Source: a virus
UHGV virus genome: UHGV-1599718
Length of the DNA: 17,932 nt
Reading direction: 5' to 3' (one strand)
The position numbers and the translations under genes were made by a program. Below the pieces are notes generated by a model. That model was not told where the DNA came from. It did no database searches and was given only the letters and a program-made list of their open reading frames with translations. Shown piece by piece: positions 2,189 through 17,097 of this stretch (positions are counted from its first letter, which is position 1; each line of letters starts with the position of its first letter).

Positions 2189-2236
2189 GATGTTCCCGAT
2201 GTCTACACACCATCAAAACAGCTCAAAATGACACTT

Positions 2237-2614
2237 TCACTCTCTTCGCTTTTTCAAATAGTCGACAACATACGCCCTGGCTTTTGCCAGCTTCCGGCGA
2301 TACTGTCTGAGACTAAGAGAAAGGGCGTGGGCTTTATCAATATGCGGTGCATTTATGTCGAGGCCCCGAATCTCCCACGCCCCGTATTCAATTCGGACAA
2401 CCAGCGCCGCAGTCTCATCAACTACCGTGAGGGCCGTCACCGCTCCCTCGATACTGGTTTCCAGTGAGTCATTTGGTGCGCCGCCCCCTCCGGTAAACTG
2501 GCAACGCGTAACCATCATCATTTCTAACATCGACGCGAAACCGCTACGGGCGTTGCAGCCATTGCGCACCCACAGCGCCCATAGCTCAAACAAGCTATCC
2601 AGATCGCGTCTCAC
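2237..2614 (-). CDS. phage antitermination protein Q-like (125 aa)
   Basis: N-terminal LFELWALWVRNG resembles the ERWGAWAANN motif of small Q-family antiterminators (QuuD-like), recalled from memory. GTG start at 2614..2612, 3 nt after the upstream stop. Confidence 0.55.
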   Translation of the reverse strand: MRRDLDSLFELWALWVRNGCNARSGFASMLEMMMVTRCQFTGGGGAPNDSLETSIEGAVTALTVVDETAALVVRIEYGAWEIRGLDINAPHIDKAHALSLSLRQYRRKLAKARAYVVDYLKKRRE

Positions 2615-4606: not shown

Positions 4607-4642
4607 ACCACGATATGTGGTATTAAAACCACATATCGTGAG
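4607..4642. promoter_or_regulatory. tandem operators O1 (ACCACGATATGTGGT, 4607-4621) and O2 (ACCACATATCGTGAG, 4628-4642)
   Basis: Two 15-bp ACCAC-N5-GTGGT dyads with centres 21 bp apart, between divergent CI-like and Cro-like genes. On the minus strand they fall in the spacer and -10 region of a TTGAAA-N17-TTTAAT promoter candidate. Confidence 0.6.
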
Positions 4643-4761: not shown

Positions 4762-5418
4762 ATGAAAAGCAACGACGAGAACATCAAGAAAGAAATAGGT
4801 CTGCGCATTCAGACTCTACGGAAACAATCCGGCATGACTGCCGGAGATCTCCAGCAAGTCACTGGAATAGGCTTAAGCACCTTGCAGAACTATGAGGCCG
4901 GATTAAGACAACCATCTATACCTGCCATCAAGAAAATCGCGCACGCCCTGAAAGCATCAGCGCCTTATATCGCGTGCTTAACAGATAACCCGTTCCCACC
5001 CCAGAATACTAACGCTCCTGTTATTCCTGGGCTTGTAGCTATAAAAAATGACATAGCATCGCACGCCGGAGAAAAACCAGTGCTGGCGATAGAACAGGAG
5101 ATTCTACGAAGCAAGAACATCAACCCATCGTCTCTGTCAGTTCTCCAGAGCAACGATGAGTTAATGTCACCAACAATATCCCCTGGCTCCCAAGTCCTGA
5201 TTAATACAGACGATACAGAGATTCATGAGGGGATCTATGCCCTTGAAGACAGAAATGGCCTGGTTGTTTTGAGGCACTGTAGAGTCATACCGGGTGACAA
5301 TGCTGTTATGCTGTCAACCGAAAGGGATGCTGAAATGAACACTAAGCATCTGAATAACGAGGAATTTAAGCGTTATAAAGTTCTTGGCCGCGTAGTTAGT
5401 GTTGTCAACTGGTTATGA
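4762..5418 (+). CDS. CI-like prophage repressor (HTH_XRE N-terminal domain plus S24 LexA-like peptidase C-terminal domain, 218 aa)
   Basis: HTH segment IGLRIQTLRKQSGMTAGDLQQVTGIGLSTLQNYEAG. C-terminal region ELMSPTISPGSQVLINTDD ... GDNAVMLS ... KVLGRVVSV matches the Ser/Lys autopeptidase layout of LexA/CI proteins. Confidence 0.8.
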   Translation: MKSNDENIKKEIGLRIQTLRKQSGMTAGDLQQVTGIGLSTLQNYEAGLRQPSIPAIKKIAHALKASAPYIACLTDNPFPPQNTNAPVIPGLVAIKNDIASHAGEKPVLAIEQEILRSKNINPSSLSVLQSNDELMSPTISPGSQVLINTDDTEIHEGIYALEDRNGLVVLRHCRVIPGDNAVMLSTERDAEMNTKHLNNEEFKRYKVLGRVVSVVNWL

Positions 5419-5460
5419 TACACAGCACGGCGAAAGCCGTGCATTTCTACGCTCAAAAAA

Positions 5461-5890: not shown

Positions 5891-5908
5891 AGCGGGCTAA
5901 CGCCCGCT
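5891..5908 (+). terminator. stem-loop, candidate terminator after the 5511 gene
   Basis: agcgggc-taac-gcccgct directly after the stop at 5885, followed by an AT-rich run (ttatatgattat). Confidence 0.5.
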
Positions 5909-6013
5909 TATATGATTATAGATTTATATAATTATATAAAACGCTTTTCATCCGCCAAAAAGTTGGTTATGCTTATCTCATTCTATAAATATAGATTTAT
6001 AGAATTATATAAT
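5908..6013. promoter_or_regulatory. two AT-rich repeat clusters (copies c at 5908-5939 and d at 5982-6013) upstream of the ParA gene; candidate operator or centromere-like site
   Basis: ttatatgattatagatttatataattatataa and tctataaatatagatttatagaattatataat; TCTATA-AA-TATAGA is a perfect palindrome. Confidence 0.4.
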
Positions 6014-6035
6014 CAAACACATGGAGTCTCGACAA

Positions 6036-6689
6036 ATGACTATATCTGTAGGTATTTTCAACGGAAAAGGCGGCGTAACCAAATCAACCATTGCTCGTGC
6101 TTTAGCAGTTGCTTATGCAAAGGCTGGCTGGAATGTATGCCTGATCGATATGGATGTGCTTAACGGAACGGTAACGCGTTGGGTACAACGCAGAATGGCC
6201 AACAATATCGAACCTGCAATCGCGGCGCAGCCGTGCGGCACGCCATCACAAGTCCAGAAAATCATCGAATCAGAAGTATACGACCTGGTTATCGTTGATG
6301 GCGGTGCCTACGCATCTGAATCAGTACCGAAGCTATCTGAATTTCTGGATATGGTTATTTTGCCAACCAGATTCTCTACCGATGACCTGGAAACCACCGT
6401 TAACACTGCTCACGGTATCGTTAAAAAGGGTGTACCAATCAAGAAAATTTGCATGGTGTTTTCCGGCGCGGCTGAAAACGAAGCTGACTATATTGAAGCC
6501 CAAGAGTACCTGGCTAATACGCCATACTTTGTTGTTGATAAGTACATTCCCCACAAGCCAGCTCTGAGCAAAGCTCAGGATAAGGGCTTAAGCCTCATTG
6601 AGTGCTCATACGTTGCGCCACGCAAAAAGGCAGACGACGTTATTCAGGGGATTATCAACCAGCTTGAGGCTCTGACTACTGCCGCGTAA
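6036..6689 (+). CDS. parA: ParA/ParF-type partition ATPase (deviant Walker A)
   Basis: GKGGVTKST deviant Walker A at the N-terminus and DLVIVDGG Walker B-like motif. ATG 6036 has GGAG 9 nt upstream; the track start at 6021 lacks an RBS. Confidence 0.85.
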   Translation: MTISVGIFNGKGGVTKSTIARALAVAYAKAGWNVCLIDMDVLNGTVTRWVQRRMANNIEPAIAAQPCGTPSQVQKIIESEVYDLVIVDGGAYASESVPKLSEFLDMVILPTRFSTDDLETTVNTAHGIVKKGVPIKKICMVFSGAAENEADYIEAQEYLANTPYFVVDKYIPHKPALSKAQDKGLSLIECSYVAPRKKADDVIQGIINQLEALTTAA

Positions 6690-6720
6690 TATATAATTAT
6701 AGTTTTATAGATTTATATAA
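6688..6720. promoter_or_regulatory. AT-rich repeat copy e between the ParA gene and its partner
   Basis: aatatataattatagttttatagatttatataa starting at the ParA stop codon. Confidence 0.4.
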
Positions 6721-6732
6721 GAGGGGATACAC

Positions 6733-7193: not shown

Positions 7194-7209
7194 ATTCAAC
7201 CATAAAAAA

Positions 7210-7225
7210 GGCCCCCGAAGGGGCC
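7210..7225. terminator. bidirectional intrinsic terminator
   Basis: ggcccc-cgaa-ggggcc flanked by an A-run on the left; on the minus strand the stem is followed by ttttttatgg. Confidence 0.5.
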
Positions 7226-7231
7226 TAATCG

Positions 7232-7354
7232 CTACTTGCTGCTAATGTTTATCGTCACATTCAGAGCGTTATCAGTAATCTTCCAACCCTCCCCATGTGG
7301 CGTAAACAAAGCTCCAGTAACAACGATAAAAATACACATACAGTATTTTTTCAT
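7232..7354 (-). CDS. possible small hydrophobic peptide (40 aa); speculative
   Basis: Internal ATG of ORF 7232..7414 gives MKKYCMCIFIVVTGALFTPHGEGWKITDNALNVTINISSK; ends at the minus-strand face of the 7210-7225 terminator. Weak RBS. Confidence 0.2.
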   Translation of the reverse strand: MKKYCMCIFIVVTGALFTPHGEGWKITDNALNVTINISSK

Positions 7355-7752
7355 TGTATGGCCCTTACAGGCCGTTTCACGGCATCCCCACCGACGAAAA
7401 CAACGCGAGAGCAAGCACGGCTGCTTGTGCTTGCATGTACGGCAACGGAGAATCCTCCCCTAAAGTCGGTGCCCGGGTGCGAATCGGCGGGAAGGTCCAC
7501 AGGTATTTTACGATTATTTTAAGATTAGTAATAGGAAAGAAATTAAACGAAAAAACTCGTTTATTTTCACAAAATCAGTAACCTACCCACAATCTGTGAG
7601 TTTGCAGGCACAACAAGAACCACAATTTTTTGAAGCATAATAGTGGACTATTATTACCTTTTGGGTAAAATTAACTTGCTGCTTGTGCTTGCGTGGTTGT
7701 TTATACAACAACGTAATGCTGAAAGGACCGCGAATCCGATCAGCACGAAAGA

Positions 7753-7779: not shown

Positions 7780-7925
7780 TTTCTGCCTACCAATAAACCC
7801 ACGCTATGTGGTTGTCTCTGTTAAAATCCCGCCGTATTGACATGAATGCGCCATTGGTGGACACTTTCCGAGCCGTAGCAAAATCTACGGTCGGGATTGG
7901 AACCCCGATAATCATCATGGCGCAT

Positions 7926-7946
7926 ACCGCGTTAGCGGTTTTTTTA
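7926..7946 (+). terminator. intrinsic terminator candidate in a non-coding region
   Basis: accgc-gtta-gcggt followed by TTTTTTT. Confidence 0.5.
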
Positions 7947-8110
7947 TGCGTAAAGCACTGCTACACCCAAATTATGGTGGGGCGTGCGGGGGAGTCGTAA
8001 GACTCGCCGGATTCCATGGTGACCGGTAGTTCCAACCCTGTACGTCTCACCACCCAATGATTGGAACCAGACGGTGGTGAGTATCCTTAACCTTTAAGGG
8101 AACTATCACC

Positions 8111-8302
8111 ATGACAAACTTACCCCATGACTATTACGTCAACCTCGTAAAGATCCTTCTCAAGAAAGCCTCATACGCCGATAAATTACGCTTGGCTGAA
8201 ATCATCGAGCGCGAAGCTATGCGCATCGCCAGCAACGATAACGCTGTTTCTGACGCAAAAATCTCCCTCGTAACCAAAGTAGTTATGGGAGGTGCAAAAT
8301 GA
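8111..8302 (+). CDS. small hypothetical phage protein (63 aa)
   Basis: ORF whose TGA overlaps the ATG of the downstream Rha-like gene (ATGA); weak RBS. Confidence 0.45.
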   Translation: MTNLPHDYYVNLVKILLKKASYADKLRLAEIIEREAMRIASNDNAVSDAKISLVTKVVMGGAK

Positions 8303-9441
8303 AAACGCTTCCGACCGTTAACACCCTACAGCCTATCCTGCATAACCAGATCCCCGTTATCACTAGTGAACTTCTGGCGCAGTTATACGGAACAAAAATC
8401 AAAAACATTTCTGATAACTTTCTGAACAACTCGACGCGATTCGTAGCCGGAAAGCATTACTTTAAAATTGAAAAAAACGAATTACGCGAGTTCAAGAACA
8501 GACCCGAAACAATCGGGTTAGTTGGTAAAAATGCCCGCTCCCTAATTCTCTGGACCGAACGCGGGGCTGCACGTCACGCTAAAATGCTCGAAACCGATCA
8601 GGCGTGGGATGTATTCGAACGGCTGGAAGACTGCTATTTCAACCAGAACGCGCAAACGGCCGCGACCGTAACCGTCTCGCCAAACAATGCTCGTGAGGTT
8701 GTCGATACGCTCAACGCCAAACCGATGTTTTACATTAAGGTGTGCAATAACGAGCCACTCACAACCTCAGCCGATGTTGCCCAGGCATTCAGCACCACAA
8801 ACAATTCCATCGTTATGGCCATCGATGCGTTACGCATTCCTCGCACAGCTGCGGCACGTCATTTCTTTAAAGAGCAACGACCGCTGGAAGGAAGCGACCG
8901 CGAAATAACAATCTATCGCATGACAAAAGATGGATTTACCTTGCTCATGGAAAGTATCGACGGTCCAGGCGTGAAAGATATCAAGCTGGCCTACATTGAA
9001 GCCTTTAACGCTATCAGCAGCGTGTTAAAAACACAGTACGAGCGTGATCTGGCTAAACGACTGTACCAGGAAAAAACGATTATCCGCGCGGCAACAGAGC
9101 ATAATCGGCTATTAACGGAACCGAACTACAGGAAGGAACTAATCAAGGAGTTTGACAAGGCAACAGGGAAAACCAAAGCGGCGCTAAATCTGCCAGCAAT
9201 GACTCAGGAAAATGTGATATCAGCCTTACTTCTTGATCTGCTCAGAAACGCCAGAGCACTTATCAGCTTTGACGAAAACCTGAATCCTCAGCTCAAGCTA
9301 CTACCACCGACAGGCAAAGTAGTCGACCAGGCTGATCACAACAGCATACTCAGCGTTCTGGATGCAAACCTGCCAGCCAGGACACTACAGGATCTGATAA
9401 AAACATGTGCTGATAAGCTGGCACAGAAAAGCAGACCATAA
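8299..9441 (+). CDS. phage regulatory protein Rha family, antirepressor-like, with N-terminal ORF6N/KilA-N-like domain (380 aa)
   Basis: GGAGG RBS. N-terminal region (IPVITSELLAQLYGTKIKNISDNF ... SLILWTERGAARHAKM) resembles the ORF6N domain. Central region (PLTTSADVAQAFSTTNNSIVMAIDAL ... ITIYRMTKDGFTLLMESIDGPGVKDIKLAYIEAFNAI) resembles the Rha domain. Confidence 0.75.
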   Translation: MKTLPTVNTLQPILHNQIPVITSELLAQLYGTKIKNISDNFLNNSTRFVAGKHYFKIEKNELREFKNRPETIGLVGKNARSLILWTERGAARHAKMLETDQAWDVFERLEDCYFNQNAQTAATVTVSPNNAREVVDTLNAKPMFYIKVCNNEPLTTSADVAQAFSTTNNSIVMAIDALRIPRTAAARHFFKEQRPLEGSDREITIYRMTKDGFTLLMESIDGPGVKDIKLAYIEAFNAISSVLKTQYERDLAKRLYQEKTIIRAATEHNRLLTEPNYRKELIKEFDKATGKTKAALNLPAMTQENVISALLLDLLRNARALISFDENLNPQLKLLPPTGKVVDQADHNSILSVLDANLPARTLQDLIKTCADKLAQKSRP

Positions 9442-9637: not shown

Positions 9638-10180
9638 AATAATTCCACCATAACCGATAACCACCCTTCAGACACAACCCCCCCTCCCCCCATACAGGGT
9701 GCCCTTTACCGGAGTTCCGGCCCCTTCTCAAAAGCATCAAAAAAAGCTCGAGATCGAGTACCGGAACTCATGCCACCAGATAGCTCCACATCGTTTCCAA
9801 TGCTTCGCCGCCGTGTGCGCCCTGTGGCCCACAATCATGCCATTGGTCGTCTGATATACCTTCTTCTGCTCATAGAGCACAGGCGAGTTGTCGCACTCCT
9901 GCCTTTCTCAGACTCGACTTAGTTTAGATCGCTGTTCCTGGCTTGCGTCAGCACACTTTCCCCTTGTACGCATACCCGCGCGCCACTCCGCCCAAAAACA
10001 CCGAACCCAACGAAGTGGCAAAGACAACGACGCGAGCGTGAGTCTGAAATGGGCACCAGTAAAAAAGGGGTTGCAGGCGCAAAAAGATTTGATTATCTTT
10101 AGACGCAAGAAAGCCGCCCCAATCAAGAGGTGTCTTTTTAAATCCAGCCTACCAAGCAAGATTTAAATTTCAGACTGAAA

Positions 10181-10198
10181 ACCGCCCGGCAAGGCGGT
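10181..10198. terminator. bidirectional intrinsic terminator
   Basis: accgcc-cggcaa-ggcggt with an A-run before and TTTTT after; downstream of the minus-strand HTH gene and of whatever is transcribed rightward from the 9700-10180 region. Confidence 0.5.
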
Positions 10199-10250
10199 TT
10201 TTGTCTTTCTGGCGCTTACATTACACCACCATAAAACGATCCGTAAAGGA

Positions 10251-10523
10251 TCATTTGTTCCCTTGTTCCAATTCTGCCGACACTTTAACCTTTTCCCATA
10301 CAAGGGTTTGCAGCCTTAACAGAATCGCGTCTTTATCAAGGTGTGAAAGATCCTTCACCATATCGTCAAACGACAGAACGCGAATGGCCATCTCAATGAC
10401 CCTCGGCGGCTCCCCCTTCTCATATCGCTTATATGTAGCCAACGATATCCCAAATTCTTCGGCGGCTCGCTCCTGCGTCCAGTTCACCCCACGACGCCAT
10501 AATTTCAATTCATAACCCGTCAT
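10251..10523 (-). CDS. small HTH (XRE/Cro-like) DNA-binding protein (90 aa)
   Basis: ATG at 10523 preceded by GAGGAGGA at 5-nt spacing (the track start at 10556 is TTG). HTH-like segment WTQERAAEEFGISLATYKRYEKG. Confidence 0.6.
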   Translation of the reverse strand: MTGYELKLWRRGVNWTQERAAEEFGISLATYKRYEKGEPPRVIEMAIRVLSFDDMVKDLSHLDKDAILLRLQTLVWEKVKVSAELEQGNK

Positions 10524-10552
10524 AGCATCCTCCTCGCACAATATTAACACTC

Positions 10553-10577
10553 GCAAAGTGTCAAAATGACACTTTGC
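10553..10577. promoter_or_regulatory. perfect 11-bp inverted repeat GCAAAGTGTCA-AAA-TGACACTTTGC
   Basis: Sits between the 126-aa gene stop (10587) and the HTH gene start (10523); a 15-nt half-copy (tcaaaatgacacttt) recurs at 2223-2237 at the 3-prime end of the Q-like gene. Confidence 0.45.
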
Positions 10578-10586
10578 GCATTGTGT

Positions 10587-10967
10587 TTACTTAACGAGGA
10601 ATAAAAATGGTTTATTGTTCGGCGGTGTAATCGCGGCTGGCTCGCTTTTGCTCATGCGATCAGTGTACCAGGCCAGCTCCTTGTCAAAGTAAGCCTGATT
10701 AAAATAGGCAATGAATGTAGTTTCAAATCCATAACGGCCGCTAATACGCAGCATCTGATTGCCGTTCTCTGTTTCCAGATATACCTGGGCACGTTCCTGA
10801 TTCTCCTTCAGCCAGGTTAAAGCCTCATCGCATGAGGACACACGATACTCATCATCGTAGCAGTCATCGATGCGGCTTGAGGAAGAACGGCAAATCACGC
10901 CAACAGAACCAGCCAGGATAGTTTGAATTTTAAGGAAAGCGTTTTTGCGGATTTTAATCATGCTCAT
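10587..10967 (-). CDS. hypothetical protein (126 aa), unknown function
   Basis: ORF with ATG at 10967 immediately downstream of the second copy of the conserved leader. Confidence 0.65.
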   Translation of the reverse strand: MSMIKIRKNAFLKIQTILAGSVGVICRSSSSRIDDCYDDEYRVSSCDEALTWLKENQERAQVYLETENGNQMLRISGRYGFETTFIAYFNQAYFDKELAWYTDRMSKSEPAAITPPNNKPFLFLVK

Positions 10968-10974
10968 CGGGTTA

Positions 10975-11063
10975 TCTCCGGTTTAACCAGGGCGGGTATC
11001 GCTCGGTTTCGGGTATAACCTTAGGAAATTTCTTCCCACCTGTAAAGCACTTTTTATATAAAT
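10975..11063 (-). promoter_or_regulatory. conserved 89-bp promoter/5-prime leader element, copy B
   Basis: Differs from 2074..2162 at 2 positions, and the similarity continues about 13 bp into the adjacent AT-rich repeat; the flanking coding sequences are unrelated. Confidence 0.55.
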
Positions 11064-11086
11064 ATATAATTATATAATTCTATGAG
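11052..11086. promoter_or_regulatory. AT-rich operator-like repeat, copy f
   Basis: ttttatataaatatataattatataattctatgag. Confidence 0.4.
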
Positions 11087-11095
11087 CACAAAAAA

Positions 11096-11130: not shown

Positions 11131-11430
11131 TCAGATGTTAAACGCTATTCGTTTTCCTGTGGGAAGCTCAACATCCAGGCTTAATTTGCCTCCCATAGCT
11201 TCAACGTAACGCTTTAATGTCGCCAGCTTTAAATCATTTCCGCGCTGCTCCAGCTTTGTTACTGCTGGCTGGCTTATACCCATCGCCTCAGCAACCTGTT
11301 TTTGTGATAACTGGAGTTCTTCACGCATCATCTGCAAGCCGACCTCAAGAATCATCTCATCTGCCATTTCTTTAATTCGCGCCTGGCTTTCCGGTGAACG
11401 GCTGGCAATCGCCTCATCTAATGTTCTCAT
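11131..11430 (-). CDS. HTH (XRE-type) antitoxin, HigA-like addiction-module antidote protein (99 aa)
   Basis: HTH segment LQLSQKQVAEAMGISQPAVTKLEQRGNDLKLATLKRYVEAMGGKL; start overlaps the toxin stop (TAATG). Confidence 0.7.
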   Translation of the reverse strand: MRTLDEAIASRSPESQARIKEMADEMILEVGLQMMREELQLSQKQVAEAMGISQPAVTKLEQRGNDLKLATLKRYVEAMGGKLSLDVELPTGKRIAFNI

Positions 11431-11777
11431 TACTTGCTCTCCAGTGTGTTCAGATGTGCTGCAAACTCATCCTCAGCTATACGCACCAGTTTTTCATAAA
11501 ACCGCTTATCGTTACTTTTGTCTCCTGCACAAAGAACGATGGCCCGGCGAATCGGATCGAACGCATAAAAGGCTCTTATCGGACGGCCAGAAAACTGAAC
11601 GCGAAGCTCTTTCATATTTTTGTACCGAGAACCTTTTACGGTATCGGCATATGGCCTGGGTAACTCAGGTCCGTAAACCTGTAGCTTTTTCAAATCAGCC
11701 AAAACCTTTTCCTGAAGAGCGTCTTCTTGCTCATTTAGCCAGTCGTCAAATCGCTGGCTAAAAAGTACCGTCCACAT
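11430..11777 (-). CDS. RelE/ParE-superfamily toxin, HigB / Gp49-like addiction-module killer protein (115 aa)
   Basis: ATG at 11777 with AGGA RBS (the track start at 11783 is TTG). Motifs WLNE..., RAFYAFDPIRRAIVLCAGDK, FYEKLVRIAEDEF and the toxin-first gene order match HigB-type killer proteins. Confidence 0.7.
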   Translation of the reverse strand: MWTVLFSQRFDDWLNEQEDALQEKVLADLKKLQVYGPELPRPYADTVKGSRYKNMKELRVQFSGRPIRAFYAFDPIRRAIVLCAGDKSNDKRFYEKLVRIAEDEFAAHLNTLESK

Positions 11778-11786
11778 GCTCAATCC

Positions 11787-12388: not shown

Positions 12389-14358
<1,970 letters not shown>

Positions 14359-16542: not shown

Positions 16543-17097
16543 TCAATGATTCCCAGCCGGAAACCTGCGGTAAAGCGTGGATAAGGTAACATCGAAGATA
16601 ATCGCTATCCGCTTACGTGAAACACCATTCGCAATAAGCCTTCCGATCTGTTCCCATTGCTCTGGTGCCAATTTTGAGCGGCGTCCTCCTATCCTGCCGT
16701 TAGCCCTTGCCACCGCCAATCCTGCACGCGTTCTTTCAATCATATTTTCCCGCTCCATCTCTGCGACTGCACTCAGCATCGTGTAGGCAAAGCGGCCAAT
16801 TGAAGTGCTAATTTTTATCCCTTCCGTAATCGAAATAAACTCAATGTTGTTTGATAAAAAATAGTTTAGTAAATCAACAAGATGAATCAGAGAACGCCCC
16901 ATTCGGTCCAGCTTCCAGACAATAACCGTATCGCCCGGCCGTAACACCTTCAGTAGCTTATCAAGTCCTGGTCGTTTTGATTTAGCACCGGATATTTTAT
17001 CTTCAAAAATCCGGTCACATCCTGAACTCCTGAGCGCCTCCAATTGTAATTCCAAATTCTGGTCAAAAGTTGACACCCTCGCATAACCATATTGCAT
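16543..17097 (-). CDS. serine recombinase, DNA invertase of the Hin/Gin/Cin/Pin family (184 aa)
   Basis: N-terminus MQYGYARVSTFDQNLELQ with catalytic-Ser context; VWKLDRMGRS; C-terminal HTH (RKRIAIIFDVTLSTLYRR). Near-collinear by eye with e14 Pin. Confidence 0.9.
   Translation of the reverse strand: MQYGYARVSTFDQNLELQLEALRSSGCDRIFEDKISGAKSKRPGLDKLLKVLRPGDTVIVWKLDRMGRSLIHLVDLLNYFLSNNIEFISITEGIKISTSIGRFAYTMLSAVAEMERENMIERTRAGLAVARANGRIGGRRSKLAPEQWEQIGRLIANGVSRKRIAIIFDVTLSTLYRRFPAGNH

Follow-up and report, generated by a model that had tools for sequence, protein, structure and literature searches.

The locus described here raises a simple question: what is a long, perfect inverted repeat doing between two genes of a phage-plasmid, and does it act as DNA bound by a protein, as RNA, or as neither? 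Within the 17,932 nt of the virus genome UHGV-1599718 that were analysed (the window), the sequence GCAAAGTGTCA-AAA-TGACACTTTGC occupies positions 10553-10577, and a preliminary description had offered it as the operator of the adjacent HTH protein, as a Q-utilisation-like element or as a recombination scar. We found that the 11-bp perfect inverted repeat is real and lies where it had been placed, between a 126-aa gene (10587-10967, - strand) and a 90-aa XRE-type HTH gene (10251-10523, - strand), 29 nt upstream of the latter; its arms are one base longer than had been stated, giving a perfect 12+3+12 palindrome, CGCAAAGTGTCA-AAA-TGACACTTTGCG (12 pairs, 10552-10578), which imperfect outer arms (AACAC/GTGTT) lengthen still further. 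It is a two-fold symmetric DNA site, as expected of an operator (roughly 15-25 bp). Chance is an unlikely origin: the palindrome was matched in 0 of 200 shuffles, and 3 of 60 first-order Markov simulations of the window produced a perfect inverted repeat of at least 11 bp.

The palindrome in its phage-plasmid

The window belongs to a P2-like myovirus phage-plasmid of E. coli, ~48 kb in size. Over the 1.5 kb around the palindrome it is 98-99% identical to some 70 plasmids of E. coli, among them pHN68-3 and the 48.5-kb one of ATCC 25922, and the Yersinia phages vB_YpM_39, vB_YpM_41 and vB_YpM_44 are as close as these plasmids; in the RefSeq annotation of pHN68-3, the palindrome falls in the plasmid-maintenance/accessory region. 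The gene order on the - strand of the window is RepA, HigB/HigA, the 126-aa gene and the HTH protein, followed by a convergent ORF6N/Rha antirepressor-like gene, and a terminator-like hairpin at 10176-10203 (11 pairs, then TCTTTCT on the + strand and an A-run on the other side) appears to close the HTH transcription unit and to be common to the convergent + strand genes.

The 126-aa gene upstream of the palindrome belongs to PHROG 8090 (function not annotated), has no Pfam match, and is a separable module: it is missing or replaced in three relatives (L058, L062 and L063) in which the palindrome and the HTH gene persist. Leader/promoter copy B (10975-11082, - strand) would drive the 126-aa gene and could read on into the palindrome; in L062 and L063, its AT-rich element immediately precedes the palindrome and HTH gene. 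This 108-nt promoter/leader is duplicated in the window at 95% identity, with copy A (2074-2181) ahead of a DUF3560 gene and copy B ahead of the 126-aa gene. An AT-rich repeat family (TTATATAAATATATAATTATATA-like) is present in five intergenic regions (928-970, 2153-2195, 5908-6015, 6689-6723 and 11038-11088) and looks like a dispersed promoter or operator set.

Other features of the window were recorded alongside. The longest perfect inverted repeat (13-bp arms, CACGATATGTGGT...ACCACATATCGTG, 4609-4640) is found where the early-left operon and a CI-like XRE/S24 repressor gene (4762-5418) diverge and, together with related AAAACCACAT... copies at 5458 and 11498, probably forms the main set of immunity operators. 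Three Rfam families score above their gathering thresholds: C4 antisense RNA (7970-8057, +), isrK (7872-7945, +) and ryfA (7204-7500, -); the first two closely precede a 63-aa ORF and the ORF6N/Rha antirepressor-like gene (8299-9441), a layout resembling the P1-type immI (c4-icd-ant). An IS21-family insertion (12389-14358), with genes for an IstA-like transposase (390 aa) and an IstB-like ATPase (266 aa), is not at this place in pHN68-3.

The HTH protein (MTGYELKLWRRG...), which we propose as the binding protein, matches the Pfam families HTH_3 (E=1.2e-6) and HTH_31 (E=1.3e-6), passing the Pfam cut-off in both cases, and belongs to PHROG 6962, annotated as of unknown function. Its AF2 monomer model is of the generic XRE type, with five helices and a pLDDT of 74, and a fold search with this model returned generic XRE matches only (all E>0.1). 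Among solved structures, Aca2, MqsA and HipB come closest by sequence (E from 9e-4 to 0.03), and Aca2, MqsA, HipB, SinR and Aca1 by sequence or fold, all of them weak matches. These five are dimeric HTH proteins that bind palindromes (PMC6765145).

The palindrome among HTH homologues

Homologues of the HTH protein (34-73% identity) are found in other phage-plasmids, in genomic islands and in an IncI/K conjugative plasmid. Those of phage-plasmids (68-73% identity; protein search, with the contigs read) have GTGTCA-N3-TGACAC 42-50 nt before the start codon, measured from centre to start. This site is kept with the 126-aa gene upstream (Klebsiella-type and Salmonella), with a 146-aa gene in its place (Yokenella-type), with an AT-rich repeat promoter that has no ORF (Citrobacter), or with a divergent gene upstream. 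Across six diverged phage-plasmid lineages (alignment A2), the operator core and a downstream TGnTAnnnT are invariant while the surrounding sequence has diverged, and the TG, the TA and the final T of the latter always follow 12 nt after the palindrome.

We searched a family profile (alignment A1), which recovered 24 loci in one-genome-per-species contigs and more in viral contigs. These 24 further loci (39-63% identity; Serratia, Enterobacter, Hafnia, Erwinia, Citrobacter, Buttiauxella and others) have AAGTG-N9-CACTT in most cases, and almost all monocistronic members of the family have this palindrome just 5' of the gene (e.g. AAGTGCAGAATCTGCACTT, AAGTGACAAAATGTCACTT, AAGTGCCAATTTGGCACTT and AAGTGCAATTTCTGCACTT). 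In the 24 loci it is centred 22-26 nt before the ATG, directly after a TAAAAT/TATAAT-like box, and at several of them it is present in two to three copies ~56 nt apart; two perfect AAGTG-N9-CACTT sites, 67 nt apart, precede a homologue (34% identity) that an IncI-gamma/K1 plasmid carries in its leading region. After dereplication, 25 of 44 family loci had the motif in the 150 nt before the start, one mismatch being allowed (vs. 7 of 813 background windows from the same loci). It is missing in about a third of the family loci, which are either internal to operons or have other palindromes. A different 20-bp palindrome, AATGTTCAAATATGAACATT, was seen upstream of a 45-47% identical homologue in L111 and L113 (IncL/M pOXA-48-type and IncFII(K) plasmids), a homologue that lies inside or ahead of a restriction-endonuclease-like/tyrosine-recombinase gene cluster.

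The same family core is present in the window (AAGTG TCAAAATGA CACTT, 10556-10574). On an operator weight matrix built from 27 operators of other family loci, with the window palindrome excluded, the palindrome scored 26.5 bits, the best of 100 shuffles reached 13.4 bits, and the second-best site in the window scored 3.5 bits; the whole of pHN68-3 (48.7 kb) contains the motif a single time, at the HTH gene. A purely descriptive grouping of the family by helix-3 sequence paired recognition helices with inner half-sites as follows: SLATYKRYE with GTGTCA, GLRTYKRYE with GTGCCA, CLRSYKDYE with GTGCAA, SMRTYIRYE with ATGTGACA, and SRRTYQKYE with GCGCA.

These results support the operator proposal of the preliminary description: AAGTG-N9-CACTT follows the HTH family through unrelated contexts, staying with the HTH gene across 34-100% protein identity, keeps a fixed distance to the start codon, and co-varies with the recognition helix. 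On this comparative evidence, we consider the palindrome to be most likely the operator through which the adjacent 90-aa XRE-type HTH protein would control its own gene.

Two other assignments of the element were tried and rejected. The first took the 126-aa gene as its anchor. The E. coli clade alone, in which the palindrome is fixed and its surroundings change, would link the two, but distant relatives show the opposite: the genome-contig scan found no relative of the 126-aa gene, and distant viral homologues of its product (47% identity) have ordinary terminators downstream and no HTH gene, and thus the palindrome is not tied to the 126-aa gene. The second took AAAGTGTCA-N3-TGACACTTT as the site of a universal protein. 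This sequence is present in ~20 unrelated viral contigs (GC 0.27-0.67), four times in some of them; these contigs have no common neighbouring protein, none of them encodes the HTH family, and several of the sites are plain terminators with a T-run, so a common system was rejected. Two of the viral contigs (L042 and L044; GC 0.35) each have four dispersed intergenic AAAGTGTCA-TWA-TGACACTTT copies without the HTH family, and these may be a separate regulatory motif that converged on the same sequence. A search of the literature on the phage family and on the motif returned nothing relevant; HQ103 is an unrelated 32-kb phage.

A possible hairpin or cassette boundary, and the half-copy

The palindrome lies 9 nt past the stop codon of the 126-aa gene, and it might instead be mainly an RNA hairpin (a terminator, an attenuator or a 3'-end stabiliser of the 126-aa transcript, bidirectional where a convergent gene has been inserted) and no protein site at all. 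The stem (12 pairs, 6 of them G-C) is stable: the 49 nt around the palindrome fold at -21 kcal/mol, folding z-scores are -5.2 for the - strand and -4.2 for the + strand, and a terminator scan flags the palindrome on the + strand (CATTGTGTTT). Relatives add to this: distant 126-aa homologues have canonical terminators at the equivalent place, the palindrome lies between convergent genes in L003-type relatives, and a 21-mer identical to that of the palindrome is a terminator stem in unrelated viral contigs. Moreover, hairpins are stronger with an upstream ORF (-21, -23, -19 and -12 vs. -11 and -4 kcal/mol without one), and of the four lineages that have a gene upstream, three lie between -19 and -23 kcal/mol and one at -11.6 kcal/mol.

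However, the transcribed (- strand) side has no U-tract, its tail being GAGUGUUAAUAU, and the - strand sequence 3' of the stem, GAGTGTTAATAT, lacks the U-run of a Rho-independent terminator; the + strand passed the terminator scan, but no + strand gene in this window reads into the palindrome. The element also stays with the HTH gene where there is no co-directional upstream gene (L062, L063, L112 and island loci), and there it overlaps the -10/+1 region, so that the full hairpin cannot be transcribed. The inner core, moreover, is conserved as sequence and not merely as pairing, and the E. coli clade tolerates mutations in a single arm. RNA covariation in the outer arms (A2) amounted to three double changes, a number reached in 94 of 500 shuffles and not above controls, and Rfam has no family at or near the palindrome. 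We regard an RNA element in place of a protein site as unlikely. The outer arms of the operator may additionally form a 3' hairpin of the upstream mRNA, a secondary role hinted at by the stronger hairpins of lineages with an upstream ORF and by the 3-nt spacer that is flipped among relatives.

The preliminary description had also raised the prospect that the sequence is a scar marking cassette boundaries, and had noted a partial copy of it elsewhere in the window. The 15-mer TCAAAATGACACTTT indeed recurs exactly at 2223-2237 (- strand, AAAGTGTCATTTTGA), where it spans a full half-site and the spacer and reaches 3 nt into the other half-site, and 0 of 200 shuffles gave two matches even with two mismatches allowed. 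A recombination hotspot or scar, with this copy as a second scar of the same process, would fit a number of observations. Homology between lineages with differing upstream cassettes begins at the left edge of the palindrome; a 141-aa gene cassette lies 12 nt to its right in L003, L007 and L010, and a 318-bp MITE-like element 29 nt to its right in the Yersinia phages 41 and 44; the 3-nt spacer is flipped among relatives (TTT/AAA and AAT/ATT), showing that the arms interact; the 15-mer covers lineage-specific inner bases and not only the family-conserved AAGTG, which suggests copying by descent; and in Salmonella a 147-aa gene stands in place of the 54-nt spacer that holds the 15-mer.

Set against these, the palindrome has no associated recombinase, the nearest recombinase-family gene (16543-17097) being 6 kb off, beside an invertible tail-fibre segment. 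The flanks of the two 15-mer copies have no further homology, and the motif is kept with the HTH gene across the whole range of protein identity in contexts without these cassettes. As to the cassette junctions, the left module edge abuts the palindrome, and the two insertions lie 12 and 29 nt to its right, near and not inside it, at points that differ from each other. What is conserved from this left edge onwards is a module of operator, promoter and HTH gene, and the palindrome marks the end of the module because it is the regulatory site of that module and not debris. The element being conserved and sequence-specific wherever the HTH gene occurs, the scar reading found little support, and we judge it very unlikely.

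The insertions and flips deserve description in their own right. The 141-aa gene (L003 2326-2751; also L007 and L010) is on the opposite strand and encodes an N-terminal hydrophobic segment; in these three relatives, the operator faces the 3' end of this convergent gene. The 318-bp element (L002 2229-2546, in vB_YpM_41; also in phage 44) lies between the HTH Shine-Dalgarno sequence and the ATG, has ~27-bp terminal inverted repeats and an ATAGC duplication, and has related copies in 368 plasmid records at 767 places; it has probably silenced the HTH gene in these two plaque-forming phages, and phage 39 is without the insertion. The spacer reads TTT or AAA within the E. coli clade (L007, L021 and L124) and AAT or ATT in Klebsiella-type and Salmonella relatives (L057 vs. 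L060), a pattern that template switching or intramolecular recombination of the arms would be expected to give.

As for the half-copy itself, it abuts the stop codon (2237-2239, - strand) of a 125-aa gene. The label Q given to that gene is not supported: the gene has no Pfam match and no Q family, belongs to PHROG 5285 (unknown function), and in NCBIfam has only a weak PA0613_fam match (21 bits vs. a cut-off of 100). A Q-utilisation-like antitermination element, made up of the palindrome and the copy at the end of this gene, is suggested by position only, the half-copy lying ~40 nt upstream of the AT-rich promoter/leader copy A. The 125-aa protein lacks a Q-family match, leader copy B has no such motif upstream, and Rfam has no match at either site; furthermore, the half-copy is absent from Salmonella pAR-0407-1, where the 147-aa gene fills the interval, yet the 125-aa protein of this relative is 92% identical. 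We consider antitermination of this kind extremely improbable. 

Nor is the half-copy a predicted second operator, a candidate that we rejected: it lacks the second conserved pentamer (GCTGT instead of CACTT), it scores -0.6 bits on the operator matrix, which is noise level, and half-site searches gave no enrichment in the window. The 25 nt that hold it are invariant in diverged E. coli-clade variants, and the next 25 nt carry eight substitutions. Since it carries the lineage-specific inner bases of the operator, the half-copy points to copying by descent, and it is possibly a weak auxiliary site or a relic.

Proposed autoregulation and comparison with known systems

We return to the palindrome as the operator of the HTH gene. 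A generic scan for consensus sigma-70 -35/-10 elements found no promoter here. The invariant TGnTAnnnT reads TGtTAATAT in the window and is a putative extended -10 (10541-10549, - strand; TG at 10549-10548, hexamer at 10546-10541); the proposed promoter is without a -35, transcription would start near 10534, and the leader would be only ~11 nt. A Shine-Dalgarno sequence, GGAGGA (10528-10533, - strand), was read from the sequence, and a G-rich block is conserved in A2.

We propose that a dimer of the HTH protein would bind the two-fold symmetric AAGTG-N9-CACTT. With this start, the palindrome would lie at about -43 to -19, directly upstream of the extended -10, and negative autoregulation is inferred from this placement. 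In distant members, the operator lies over the -10/+1 region instead. Negative autoregulation would be the most likely outcome because the bound dimer would exclude RNA polymerase in the phage-plasmid arrangement and in that of the distant members alike, and transcription of the gene would thus be held down by its own product. In the window, the bound dimer might also block read-through from the 126-aa gene. We think repression likely, rather than activation.

Two observations complicate this picture. In L003, L007 and L010, the HTH gene is cut off from the palindrome and the associated -10 by a 570-bp cassette, the 141-aa + strand gene together with upstream DNA of its own lying between ...GAGTGTTAATAT and the HTH start; the HTH gene there uses other upstream DNA, and the pairing of operator and gene is therefore not obligatory in cis. 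In addition, the 12-15 bp arms exceed what the family core needs, a point against a pure operator role. On the read-through transcript of the 126-aa and HTH genes, a hairpin of -21 kcal/mol is predicted 29 nt before the HTH start codon. By analogy with Aca2, the element could work at two levels, as a DNA operator and as an RNA hairpin bound by the same HTH protein, tuning translation or mRNA fate; and as the AAGTG-N9-CACTT core is common to phage-plasmid, conjugative leading-region and island homologues, the regulators of co-resident elements might cross-regulate one another. We hold these two extensions, taken together, to be improbable.

An ordinary autoregulatory operator, which is most likely what the palindrome is, would be routine by itself. 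What the comparison adds is AAGTG-N9-CACTT as the operator consensus of a so far uncharacterised group of small HTH regulators (PHROG 6962), whose relatives were found by tblastn (E<=1e-3) in 3,781 plasmid records, 3,302 of them conjugative, as well as in enterobacterial islands and phage-plasmids. The consensus, point mutations in it and the predicted start offer a handle on what these regulators control, including genes of plasmid leading regions, and the annotation of the element is freed of the unsupported 'Q gene / qut' reading.

Of the known systems, Rho-independent terminators resemble the palindrome in having a 12-bp stem, half of it G-C, a 3-nt loop and a position directly after a stop codon; unlike them, the palindrome has no U-run on the transcribed strand, and its stem sequence itself is conserved. 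A closer likeness is to autoregulated XRE-family (Cro/C1-type) regulators such as the antitoxins HipB and MqsA, which are likewise small HTH_3-type proteins with a symmetric site of ~19-21 bp in their own promoter region, a site that among members of the family described here is often present in two to three copies. In contrast to HipB and MqsA, the HTH protein has no adjacent toxin partner, the HigBA pair (11131-11783) being a separate operon, and its sequence similarity to these and other solved members is marginal, as given above. To our knowledge, AAGTG-N9-CACTT matches no operator of HipB/MqsA-type proteins.

Among solved structures, the best sequence match is Aca2 of phage ZF40 (PDB 7EZY; E=9e-4, aligned from residue 1, MTxYEL...), and as in Aca2 loci, a small gene, of unknown or anti-defence function, precedes that of the regulator. 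Aca2 is an anti-CRISPR-associated dimeric HTH autorepressor of mobile elements that binds inverted repeats in its own operon (PMC6765145, PMC13551039); it also binds RNA hairpins of its own mRNA, and such motifs can lie between the genes of an operon (PMC13551039). The HTH protein is nevertheless shorter (90 vs. 125 aa) with a differing C-terminal part, has no DUF1870 Pfam match (E<=0.01), and is associated with an AAGTG-N9-CACTT core in place of the TTCG-N6/8-CGAA core of Aca2 repeats (PMC6765145); its repeat separates the HTH gene from the gene before it, whereas that of Aca2 precedes the operon. On the lack of DUF1870 and on the repeat sequence, we rejected membership in Aca2.

The remaining comparison is with a protein annotated as 'ygeA' in the leading region of the IncI-gamma/K1 plasmid pS12-1. 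F-plasmid YgeA (PMC9849209) was considered as a characterised homologue and rejected, since it is not homologous and has only the name in common with the IncI/K annotation. The pS12-1 protein differs in its setting, the leading region of a conjugative plasmid, and in having operators over the -10/+1 rather than the -35 region; it is, however, homologous to the HTH protein of the window (34% identity over 73 aa, with the N-terminus MTGxEL(R/K)(L/I)WR in common), and its gene has two perfect AAGTG-N9-CACTT sites upstream, the proximal one following TGaTAAAAT.
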